A stretch of DNA of 64,000 nt from the NCBI GenBank assembly GCA_964106915.2, contig OZ066923.1; one strand, 5' to 3'. Under the pieces are notes generated by a model, which did no database searches, was not told the origin of the DNA, and worked only from the letters and a program-made list of their open reading frames with translations. The stretch's first letter is position 1; each line of letters starts with the position of its first letter. Below, in pieces: positions 41,015 through 52,871 of this stretch. A program made the position numbers and the translations under genes. The stretch comes from Podarcis gaigeae (Eukaryota).

Positions 41015-41188
41015 TTATTCGTGCTGTTTTGCTTTGTGTGCAAATCCAACTCTGTTATTCCCACGATCAAAGACGCAATAGAAAGCTGACATAAATACGT
41101 CTCCCAGAATCCACATCGGTTTGCTGCGGGGGCCGAGATCCAGAGCCTGAAAGCCACTGAGGCAAAAAGCTTCTCCTCCACTGGTTTG
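41015..41188 (-). CDS. nots: Nothepsin exon 9
   Basis: [60 protein letters not shown]. Confidence 0.92.
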
Positions 41189-50100: not shown

Positions 50101-52871
50101 ACGGACCTCCAGAACAAATTAAGTTCTTAACCCGAGGTACCACTGTACATACACACACATATGCATGTATATATAATAGTGGGGCCACGAGACTCCTGGT
50201 TGTTTTTGCTTTACTTCACGGCCAGGTGTGCCAACTCTAAGGGGTGGAGGTGTCATCAGCGCCCTCAATATTTCTTAGCAGAGGTCTCAGCGCCCCCAAT
50301 ATTGAGGGGGTGGAGGAGGCCAAACCGCCAAGCCGAGTGGCACAGCATCAAAGGCAGCCTCCTCCTGAGTGTGAGAGAGGAGCAGCTGTGGTGTTGGGCA
50401 AGGCCTCCTTCCGACGATGCACACCCAACACATGACACAACACGTGTTGCAAAATTCACTGGCATGTCACACATGGACCGCATCGCGGCACTGCTGGCCC
50501 CCCAATCTTTGGCTCAAGGCAGCACCTTTGTTGACAGATACCTCAAAACATAGTTAAAACAAAATGAAAACATTTGTGGCCTCACAAGGAAACTGTTAAA
50601 GGAAACTGTTTTCCATCTCGTCGTGTTCCTTTTCTACAGCAGTTTGAGGAAAGAGTTGCTTTTACCACACCTCTCATCAAGTGGATTTACCTCACAATCC
50701 CTTTCTCCTCATTTTCTTGCACAGTCCCTTTTGAAGGACCTGCTCTAAGTCCAGCCACCTCCTCAAGTAAACAGGATCAGAATTAAAACAAGAACCACTC
50801 ACAAATCCTTAGACAAGAAGCCTGATAGCTATTCTGCTCAAATGGTTAGCACAGAGGGAGTCAACATGGTGCCCCCCCCCCAGATTTTGGAGGAATACAG
50901 CTCCCACCAGCCCCAGGCAGTGTGGTCAACAGTCAGGGATGATGGAAGTAGTAGTCTAGCAACATCTGGATGGCACCACATTGCCAATGGTACGTTAAAT
51001 GATAAAACCAACCTTCCTTCTCTTTGCAGTTCATGAGGAATACCGGTAAATGTTTCCTAGAATTAGGAATTTACATATGGAGCCTCTATTATATTTTAAG
51101 AAAACATTAAAAAGTCAATTGTCGCTTATTTGAGGCATGTGCTTTAATTCCTAATTGTCCTGGGAGTGAACAGGTGGTTTAAATTTGTAATCTATTTTAG
51201 GTTTACTTTACAATACAACAATAATGTTTCTGGTATGGTCTGGGCTACTAACAGCTCTATAAATATTGGCTTAATAGGTTCCAAGTACAGCAATTTTACT
51301 AAGAGACAGAGCAATGGATGTTTGCTGACATTTTTTAGTTACTTCTTTTATAGACATTTATAGACTATTTTATATGTTGCAATCTGCCTTGTTATTTTAT
51401 GAAGGAGCCTTGTTATTTCATGAAAGAGCAGGTTATTAGTCTTCAAATCAATCAATCAATGAGCAACATCTGTCCTATGAGCTTTCATCCCATTATTATG
51501 CAGTGACATACTCACATTCATGTAATCATAGAGCCTTTCTGTTGCAAGTCCCTGTGACAAATTAATATCTGAAGGGAGACAGTGCGGGTACCTCTGAACA
51601 AAAATGTCAGGTTGGCGGTCTTCAAGAAGCTTATGCAGCTCTCCTCTTTTACGGAGTTTTCCTCTGATAGATTCAAATCGCGTTAGAGGGATCCTGGGCG
51701 GATGACATGAATGCATGTTTGGTGTGGCACACAATGGACAATAAAATCCCAGAAAAGCAGAAATTAGGACTAGGACTAGTATGTTTTTTCTAGGGTGGTT
51801 TAATCAATATTTTTCCCCTGGTATGTACCATGTTAATTTTGCCTAGCTTAGGATAGAAATCAACATAGAGCTAATAAGATAATTCTTCAAGCATTTCTGC
51901 CCGCCAGATGAAACAACCGTCCTTCTCCTCCCCACATGTGTTGTTCTGGGGTTTCCCCGACCCTCCGAAATGAATTGAGGACGCGCAGGGGGAGAAGAGG
52001 AGGGAAAGCTCTTCTGAGCTCTCGCAAGTCCTTGCACTGGCTTCTGCTAGTGCACCAGTTGAGTTGAATCCAGCCCTTAGAGTGTTATAAAACTACATGG
52101 TAGATGTTGAGGCCTGGAATGGGCAAACATGTCCATTTTGGGTTTCTCTCAGTTTTCTAATCTTAAATTCCACATTTCTGCATCAGTTTGCGATTAAAAA
52201 AATTCCTCATGAAAATTTGCCAACATTTTAGCGAAAATCTCTCCTGTGTAAATTTTTATATGCACATATTTATATCTATTTTCACTAATATGTGCACCCT
52301 TTACCATTGTATAGGCACTTTTACATACATTACTTGACTGGAGAACTGCACTGAAAAAGCTGGCTGAGAATATTGAAGGATAGCTGTTCTTCTGTTCACA
52401 TCTTGTTTCAGAAAACACAAAGTTGGTTAGCTCACTTTTAAATGCCAATGGAATCAAGTTTCTCCCCCATTCCTATTTGAGGTACATGAGCTACTGCTAG
52501 TCTGTGTAGTACTGGACTAGATAAATAGCCTGAATTAGTATAAAGCATCTTCCCAAGAACTGAAATTAACATAAATTGTGGTATTATGCGTTCCAATCAT
52601 TGGGACTTGTTGCAGGGGAAATGTTTCCATGAATTTTGCCCAGGGTTTGAGACTAGTACCATCTTGTAGCAAATGCCTTTCTATAGCATGCCAACACCAA
52701 AAGTTTCTTTTTTATATATAAAAAAGGCTTCTAAAATAATTAACAAGACTCCTTTTTACAGAAACATGGGCCCACTGCTAAGAACACACTGAAAATATAT
52801 GAAATACTTCCTTACCTTACTACAGCTGTGAGGCACGGAATATAAACCAGAGCTGCTAAGAGAACCCTCAT
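41015..52871 (-). CDS. nots: Nothepsin / cathepsin E-A-like A1 aspartic protease (gene span; 9 exons, 1212 nt, 403 aa)
   Basis: Exons in transcript order: 52816-52871, 51516-51693, 48181-48298, 46608-46726, 45907-46106, 43670-43792, 42637-42781, 41830-41928, 41015-41188. Canonical 9-exon pepsin-family structure with no stops or frameshifts. Signal peptide [18 protein letters not shown], prosegment [15 protein letters not shown], catalytic VVFDTGSS and IVDSGTS, flap [24 protein letters not shown]. The aspartic protease call is certain; the nothepsin paralogue call rests on the DSG motif, the cathepsin E-like sequence and the locus. Confidence 0.88.
41830..41928 (-). CDS. nots: Nothepsin exon 8
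   Basis: [33 protein letters not shown]; 99 nt; this frame is not in the ORF track. Confidence 0.92.
42226..42486. mobile_element. Tc2-like MITE related to 2496-2966
   Basis: TA-CCATATTTTTCGCTCTATAAGAC ... GTCTTATAGAGCAAAAA..CGG-TA; shares the block gcctgcattcgctccata. Confidence 0.8.
42637..42781 (-). CDS. nots: Nothepsin exon 7 (second catalytic Asp, DSG)
   Basis: [48 protein letters not shown]; 145 nt. Confidence 0.93.
43670..43792 (-). CDS. nots: Nothepsin exon 6
   Basis: [40 protein letters not shown]; 123 nt. Confidence 0.93.
45171..45382. mobile_element. Tigger-like MITE
   Basis: Same family as 15469; TA-flanked CAGTGGTACC TIRs. Confidence 0.88.
45907..46106 (-). CDS. nots: Nothepsin exon 5
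   Basis: [38 protein letters not shown]...VFSFILNR; 200 nt. Confidence 0.93.
46608..46726 (-). CDS. nots: Nothepsin exon 4 (flap)
   Basis: [40 protein letters not shown]; 119 nt. Confidence 0.93.
47116..47850. mobile_element. Solo LTR (735 bp) in nothepsin intron 3
   Basis: Inverted termini TGTTACGGAAATTACAGG ... CCTGGAATTTTCCTTAACA (TG...CA); 4-bp TSD GTGG. Confidence 0.78.
48181..48298 (-). CDS. nots: Nothepsin exon 3 (first catalytic Asp)
   Basis: [39 protein letters not shown]; 118 nt. Confidence 0.93.
49423..49794 (+). mobile_element. Sauria SINE nested in a palindromic hAT MITE
   Basis: TSD ggaatgtctgaag/ggaatgtttgaag; host MITE arms at about 49308-49422 and 49795-49828. Confidence 0.88.
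49920..50145. mobile_element. Tigger-like MITE
   Basis: Same family as 15469. Confidence 0.88.
51516..51693 (-). CDS. nots: Nothepsin exon 2 (prosegment)
   Basis: [60 protein letters not shown]; cag/gtgagt. Confidence 0.9.
52816..52871 (-). CDS. nots: Nothepsin exon 1 (signal peptide)
   Basis: gaaaccATG with A at -3; [19 protein letters not shown]; gtaagg donor; TATA box about 50 nt upstream. Confidence 0.85.

Follow-up and report, generated by a model that had tools for sequence, protein, structure and literature searches.

An intact nothepsin gene beside LRRC10 in the lizard Podarcis gaigeae and its possible role in yolk processing

The window analysed here is a stretch of 64,000 nucleotides (nt) of Podarcis gaigeae DNA (assembly GCA_964106915.2, contig OZ066923.1), whose six-frame translation contains two aspartic-protease motifs, both on the minus strand and both inside positions 41015-52871. 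Enumerating and joining splice sites on that strand, from an ATG at 52871 to a stop ending at 41015, yields a nine-exon gene lying between a bestrophin gene and LRRC10, which we identify below as nothepsin, an aspartic protease of the A1 family (Table 1). The eight introns are all GT-AG, with phases 2, 0, 1, 0, 2, 2, 0 and 0, and the 1212 nt of coding sequence specify a preproenzyme of 403 amino acids (aa) plus a stop codon, with no internal stops. The protein retains the catalytic Asp pair D99 (DTG) and D284 (DSG), the flap Tyr142, Trp106 (the equivalent of Trp39) and the Cys pairs 112-117, 275-279 and 318-355; structural hallmarks of the A1 family are in place, namely two Asp-Thr/Ser-Gly motifs, a bilobed single chain, a signal peptide, a basic propeptide and a zymogen fold. 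A first-pass annotation of this DNA had described nine in-phase exons encoding a 403-aa preproenzyme with this catalytic and Cys set, and all of it was recovered, with the ATG at 52871 and the end of the stop codon at 41015 exact. Its remark that exons 1, 3, 6, 8 and 9 do not appear in frame among the open reading frames (ORFs) depends on the length threshold; with 90 aa, exons 2, 4 and 5 are the only ones to show in frame.

The gene is intact and real. The RefSeq model of Podarcis muralis, XP_028603176.2, aligns by tblastn to each of the nine exons (E 2e-39 to 2e-5), and because this independent model covers all of them with 396 of 400 residues identical, a chance joining of exons is ruled out. 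The protein P0001, which is 99% identical to the window protein, covers the entire Pfam Asp model (E 4e-113) and also matches A1_Propeptide (E 7.5e-5). Its AlphaFold model (predicted local distance difference test, 84.3; predicted template modelling score, 0.85; residues 47-73 of low confidence) resembles A1 zymogens, with template modelling scores of 0.84 to pepsinogen (2psg) and 0.86 to schistosome cathepsin D1. When cathepsins E and D were used as queries against the window, they matched only within the nothepsin exons, so the window holds no second A1 gene and no A1 pseudo-exons.

Table 1. Coordinates of the nothepsin gene, its candidate regulatory elements and the neighbouring genes in the window.
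Feature	Positions	Strand	Remarks
Exon 1	52816-52871	-	ATG; hydrophobic, signal-peptide-like segment, aa 1-19 (leader judged by sequence reading)
Exon 2	51516-51693	-	Basic propeptide (isoelectric point 9.6, aa 19-71); conserved Cys57; sequon N63
Exon 3	48181-48298	-	Asp99 (DTG), Trp106, Cys112-Cys117
Exon 4	46608-46726	-	Flap, Tyr142
Exon 5	45907-46106	-	Sequon N160; first psi-loop hydrophobic-Gly motif
Exon 6	43670-43792	-	Interdomain segment
Exon 7	42637-42781	-	Cys275-Cys279, Asp284 (DSG), Thr287
Exon 8	41830-41928	-	Cys318
Exon 9	41015-41188	-	Cys355; loop without polyproline run; Cys384; stop
TATA-like box	52923-52929	-	58 nt upstream of ATG; consensus match
Proximal promoter motifs	52959-53040	-	Estrogen-element half-sites at -93 and -111; overlapping C/EBP-like and forkhead-like motifs at -166 and -169; consensus matches, no chance control
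Candidate estrogen response element	55342-55356		Differs at one position from the 15-nt palindrome; outside repeats; 2.47 kb upstream of ATG
Candidate poly(A) signal	40549-40554	-	First AATAAA, about 460 nt past the stop; beside a repeat copy
Bestrophin gene	19571-34042	+	Convergent with nothepsin; exons from 19571, last long ORF to 34042; Pfam 2e-31
LRRC10	56295-57125	+	Single ORF, divergent from nothepsin; top three Atlas clusters named LRRC10, score 0.99
CCT2 (TCP-1 beta), 3' exons	59322-62945	-	Best match TCP-1 beta, 4e-22; gene probably extends past these coordinates

The closest relatives of the encoded protein are other lacertid nothepsins. The P. muralis model, which is named 'cathepsin E-A-like', is 99.0% identical over the 400 aligned residues; Zootoca XP_034983542.2 is 94.8% identical (379/400), and the record CAI46901.1, 'nothepsin [Podarcis siculus]', is 93.8% identical (378/403) and belongs to the top cluster, which has 14 lacertid members. 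Table S1 of Nagasawa and Inokuchi 2026 (PMC13389413), covered here for 35 of its 61 'not' matches and six targeted rows, lists the Zootoca protein as nothepsin, along with the echidna and platypus proteins that we used. A protein search with exon 5 (best 120 of 213 proteins) returned, in order among the matches listed, squamate, bird, turtle, monotreme and caecilian proteins called 'cathepsin E-like' or similar, then fish nothepsins, and then true cathepsin E.

We built a tree of 66 rows, consisting of the window protein and 65 named proteins chosen from 292 after unnamed, fragmentary and redundant records had been set aside; the first version was a quick tree, and a careful run agreed with it on the main clades. 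The window protein adjoins P. muralis, on a terminal branch of 0.006, within a nothepsin clade of 38 rows (support 100/99), three anchors of the tree (P0122, P0044 and P0135) being listed as nots in PMC13389413 Table S1. Cathepsin E (12 rows, 100/100) and cathepsin D (13 rows, 100/98) form clades apart from it, with cathepsin E as the sister clade of nothepsin (99/96; midpoint root). A cathepsin E identity was rejected by the approximately unbiased (AU) test (p 5.4e-66), the log-likelihood being 128 lower when the window protein was forced into that clade; a cathepsin D identity is not supported, since in the tree the protein lies outside the ctsd clade and since it has no polyproline loop. 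The first-pass annotation had called the gene nothepsin and proposed an A1 phylogeny in which a grouping with CTSE would speak for the contrary; the nots clade includes the protein, whereas the ctse and ctsd clades do not, and its call is borne out by that placement, by the AU test and by near-identity to named and published nothepsins. We regard it as practically certain that the nine exons make up the lacertid (Podarcis-like) orthologue of an A1 aspartic endopeptidase, nothepsin (NOTS; in chicken CTSEAL, GeneID 417848).

The names carried by database records point the other way, toward true cathepsin E, cathepsin D, napsin or another paralogue, and the best solved-structure matches are indeed cathepsin E (388 bits) and then cathepsin D (368), ahead of chymosin (334), pepsinogen (323), gastricsin (307) and renin (298 phmmer bits). 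Cathepsin E is, however, only the nearest solved paralogue, because no match in the PDB is named nothepsin, and over the mature region the window protein is most similar to nothepsins (52-99% identity, compared with 48-53% for cathepsin E and 44-50% for cathepsin D). In tetrapods CTSE adjoins rab7b (PMC13389413), which is a different interval: the window gene has bestrophin, LRRC10 and CCT2 as neighbours and not rab7b, and so does not occupy the cathepsin E locus. Taken with the AU result, this leaves a paralogue identity hardly credible at all. The tree contains no renin, pepsinogen or amniote napsin rows, which tells against the assignment, but separation from these families is moot because the protein is 95-99% identical to nots anchors. 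It is also very improbable that the window copy is decaying, or that its exons have been joined by chance. Residues V273 and L310 and a three-residue C-terminal extension, all absent from the lacertid records compared, would fit such a reading, but there is no frameshift or internal stop, the introns are canonical in 8/8 cases, the catalytic residues are all present and the end branch is short (0.006).

That automated names may obscure the gene, as the first-pass annotation suggested, is evident from the clade itself, whose members are called cathepsin E-like, E-A-like, cathepsin E or cathepsin D. Four of its rows (P0030, P0123, P0010 and P0073) carry the names 'cathepsin D' (Anolis, Lacerta agilis) or 'cathepsin E' (Tyto, Merluccius). 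The confusion between nothepsin and cathepsin E is explained by Nagasawa and Inokuchi 2026 (PMC13389413).

The first-pass annotation placed the gene between BEST3 and LRRC10. The LRRC10 side of that claim stands on the Atlas assignment, which is the source of the name, an exact look-up of the ORF in the protein collection having returned no match. On the other side, Pfam supports a bestrophin gene, which we take to be BEST3 from synteny; a PDB search gave 13 chains, all of them bestrophin-1, bestrophin-2 or unnumbered and none bestrophin-3, and an Atlas search gave the name 'bestrophin' without a paralogue number. In human, BEST3 and LRRC10 are adjacent, and no protease gene is known between them. 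For CCT2, one exon matched, and the candidate exon at 61441-61650 had no match in Pfam or the PDB. Table S2 of PMC13389413 gives nots intervals of best3-cct2 in medaka, ptprb-lrrc10 in eel, nots-cct2 in zebrafish and ptprb-frs2 in lizard, and bounds the region by best3, cct2, lrrc10, ptprb, frs2 and cpsf6. With the BEST3 name given by synteny, the window fits this conserved ptprb-best3-lrrc10-cct2-frs2-cpsf6 block, and the suggestion that this is the ancestral locus of the gene is supported by those intervals. A gene model from Liparis tanakae, P0067, fuses CCT2 with nothepsin, its parts matching window positions 59322-62945 and 41039-51698 on the same strand; this is an independent sign that the adjacency of the two genes is old.

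Several features of the protein family distinguish nothepsin from cathepsins E and D. The second catalytic motif is DSG in 30 of the 38 nothepsin rows, as against 0/12 for cathepsin E, in which it is always DTG (12/12), and 0/13 for cathepsin D; in the Table S1 rows covered, DSG is the tetrapod form and DTG that of lungfish, coelacanth and fishes (PMC13389413). A polyproline loop, scored as at least three Pro among the 12 residues that precede the last psi-loop, was found in none of 31 nothepsins, in 7/7 cathepsin E and in 8/10 cathepsin D proteins, the other two being unscorable. This loop shapes the prime-side subsites of the enzyme, and its loss suggests a prime-side specificity unlike that of cathepsins D and E. 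Cys57 is aligned in 37 of 38 nothepsins, and the distance from the N-terminal Cys to the first conserved strand is 23-24 residues in 26/31 of them, compared with 17 in 7/7 cathepsin E proteins, where the N-terminal Cys forms a dimer; cathepsin D has no such residue (0/10). A second extra Cys, Cys384 in exon 9, is shared by 26/38 nothepsin rows and is absent from every row of cathepsins D and E. Thr287, which follows the second Asp, is invariant in 49/49 rows, and Thr at this position goes with an acid pH optimum. Renin has Ala there (PMC13389413). The median isoelectric point (pI) of the mature enzyme is 5.5 in nothepsin (38 rows) and 4.07 in cathepsin E (12 rows), the window protein having a value of 6.07. 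Of 99 named proteins that are at least 370 aa long and score better against nothepsin than against the cathepsin D and E references, 93 show the flap pattern together with the two Asp motifs, and the other six miss one pattern.

The lacertid records share with the window copy their clade, the best3/lrrc10/cct2 neighbourhood, the N-terminal Cys, the tetrapod-type DSG and the lack of a polyproline loop, at 93.8-99.0% identity, and differ from it in the three C-terminal residues and two substitutions mentioned above. Cathepsin E resembles nothepsin in its A1 fold, its three Cys pairs and its extra N-terminal Cys, but differs in the spacing of that Cys, in its polyproline loop and DTG motif, in being more acidic, in lying at another locus and in being kept in most mammals. 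Cathepsin D has the same fold and catalysis; in contrast to nothepsin, it is ubiquitous and lysosomal, has a polyproline loop and no N-terminal Cys, is retained by mammals, and is only 44-50% identical.

What the protein does has to be approached through its orthologues. In the laying hen, the orthologue is 35-fold up in liver and its protein is in the yolk (PMC3495648; further evidence in PMC6839265), and just one other protease or antiprotease induced in hen liver was found there (PMC3495648). In trout liver under estradiol, nothepsin rises more than 4475-fold and is the second most significantly induced transcript, after vtg1 (PMC4556936). In zebrafish, the plasma protein is 23-fold female-biased and of low abundance, at 7.8 ug/mL (PMC4829857), and ovarian follicles contain the protein and lack the transcript (PMC1488847). 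Because the window gene encodes an intact zymogen with the acid-type Thr287, this expression pattern leads us to a reading in which the enzyme is made in liver, carried in blood, imported by the oocyte and activated by acid. Estrogen would turn the gene on in the liver of the vitellogenic female; the signal peptide would direct a glycosylated zymogen into the blood, its cleft blocked at neutral pH by the basic propeptide; and the growing oocyte would import it along with vitellogenin. By analogy with the hen and fish orthologues, these three steps very probably hold in the lizard as well. The TATA-like box, the liver-type motifs, the two half-sites and the candidate estrogen element upstream of the window gene (Table 1) fit such expression, as weak support. 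In the endosome or yolk body, acid would then free the propeptide, and D99 and D284 would activate water and cut yolk precursors beside hydrophobic residues, assisting cathepsin D. For this last step, for the substrate and for the cause of the therian loss discussed below, all of which we infer in every species alike, the chances seem to us a little better than even. As an overall explanation, an estrogen-induced liver zymogen that is imported by the oocyte, activated by acid and cuts yolk precursors is the one we favour, with modest confidence.

Alternatively, nothepsin might be kept in the yolk as a zymogen that stays latent and mobilises yolk for the embryo only later, as the yolk bodies acidify. 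Fully grown follicles and the yolk of the laid egg contain the protein (PMC1488847, PMC3495648), its propeptide would permit latency, and a role after oviposition is raised as open in PMC3495648. The nothepsin in fully grown zebrafish follicles, however, is already cleaved (PMC1488847), and we consider prolonged latency unlikely; the literature examined yielded no data on the timing of activation. The enzyme might instead act on secreted yolk precursors, which it would trim or turn over in the hepatocyte or in plasma, with its presence in yolk reflecting passive carry-over. Its occurrence in zebrafish plasma (PMC4829857) and the less acidic pI of mature nothepsins relative to cathepsin E would suit such a role, and PMC3495648 allows that its presence in yolk may be coincidental. 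The retained Thr287, on the other hand, disfavours activity at plasma pH, and carry-over sits poorly with the small number of hen-liver-induced proteases and antiproteases that reach the yolk (PMC3495648), so that action before the oocyte also appears rather improbable.

Several considerations weigh against import by the oocyte followed by acid activation and yolk cleavage. The evidence on expression and routing comes from fish and hen only, and the physiological role of the protein is described as largely unknown in PMC13389413 and as not yet explored in PMC3495648. A literature search found no nots knockout in the context of vitellogenesis, and no demonstrated substrate was found in the literature examined. 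Cathepsin D is the established vitellogenin-processing enzyme of the oocyte, and since it already processes yolk, nothepsin could be redundant. The joint loss of nothepsin and yolk, moreover, amounts to one shared evolutionary event. The candidate estrogen response element, the sole such match in the window, lies closer to LRRC10 (0.94 kb) than to nothepsin (2.47 kb), and although its 15-mer was reached by 15 of 100 whole-window shuffles and by only 13 of 1000 intergenic shuffles, its 13-mer core was reached by 126 of 1000 intergenic shuffles, a weak result. We have downgraded the support that it lends to a weak indication, the 15-mer being significant, the 13-mer core not, and the region having been picked after the fact. 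Nothepsin and LRRC10 are arranged head to head, with start codons 3.4 kb apart (52872-56294), and the element at 55342 could serve either gene.

The evolutionary history of the gene has been outlined by others. Quesada et al. 2010 reported nothepsin in birds, fish, reptiles and platypus and its pseudogenization in metatherians and eutherians, and suggested a possible link to oviparous as opposed to viviparous reproduction (PMC2865498). Nagasawa and Inokuchi 2026 traced it to cartilaginous fishes and found it lost in mammals except monotremes (PMC13389413); in their Table S1, the first nothepsin row is that of echidna (row 389), the 14 earlier 'not' matches all being wallaby row names. The first-pass annotation was thus right that placentals lack the gene, but its scope was too narrow: marsupials have lost it too, and platypus and echidna, among monotremes, keep it while therians do not (PMC13389413, PMC2865498). 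The locus, the therian loss, the monotreme retention and the mislabelling as cathepsin E are already published (PMC13389413, PMC2865498). Calling the gene in the window therefore adds little, as its orthologue is in RefSeq for close relatives and is named in the same genus.

The further claim that nothepsin belongs to egg-laying vertebrates did not hold. Table S1 of PMC13389413 lists nothepsins from Zootoca, Crotalus tigris, platyfish, whale shark and coelacanth. Our 66-row tree contains those of Thamnophis, Candoia and Hemicordylus. All eight are live-bearers that depend on yolk, and because such species retain nothepsin, the gene tracks yolk and not egg-laying; therians may have lost it when their lineage abandoned yolk. 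Vitellogenin, like nothepsin an estrogen-induced liver product delivered to yolk, shows the same pattern, being kept in monotremes and lost in marsupials and placentals (Brawand et al. 2008, PMC2267819). The vitellogenin losses have been dated, whereas our literature search found no dating of the nothepsin loss, and it found no report in print of repeated nothepsin loss in placentotrophic lineages. A bolder proposal gives vitellogenin an obligate and non-redundant partner in nothepsin, which would be a disulfide-linked dimer through Cys57 with its own prime-side specificity, would be required for yolk processing and would be lost again independently wherever yolk is given up, as in highly placentotrophic skinks and matrotrophic poeciliids. 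We regard this as doubtful; if it is true, nothepsin would mark yolk loss in genomes and would supply a step now missing from yolk biochemistry. The interest of the protein lies in its conservation, from sharks to platypus, as a liver protease that estrogen induces, and neither its substrate nor its repeated loss with yolk is made more testable by the window copy. The smaller additions made here, namely the missing polyproline loop, the conserved N-terminal Cys and the tetrapod DSG motif, offer handles for functional work.

Two anomalies concern the lacertid records. Residues 372-414 of CAI46901.1 (P0127) form a cathepsin D-like tail, to be compared with window positions 41015-41110 on the minus strand. 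Over 26 residues of this tail, 25 match wombat cathepsin D and 18 match the P. muralis gene, and a search with it (best 120 of 157) returned cathepsin D-type and unnamed proteins, with none named nothepsin among the matches listed. It is probably a chimeric or primer-derived cDNA end, judging from these matches, and serves as a practical warning when the record is used as a reference. Separately, the window frame runs three codons past the end of nine other full-length lacertid records (41015-41026, minus strand), a small stop-loss, and the window protein differs from the lacertid records compared at V273 and L310; these could be species or allele differences or sequencing errors.

The remaining observations concern the surroundings of the gene. 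A run of 148 N at 25926-26073 lies inside the bestrophin gene and leaves the nothepsin finding unaffected. CpG-rich stretches occur at 2501-3000 and 11501-12500, the latter perhaps the promoter of the next gene beyond bestrophin, presumably RAB3IP by synteny; a motif search for a gene upstream of bestrophin found nothing relevant. A frame of 111 aa at 3992-4327 (plus strand) has no Pfam match; it looks like the terminal part of a LINE reverse transcriptase. An interspersed repeat of about 230-240 nt lies in introns of nothepsin (45167-45393 and 49916-50156) and upstream of the gene (53684-53927), with an inverted copy downstream (40558-40638).

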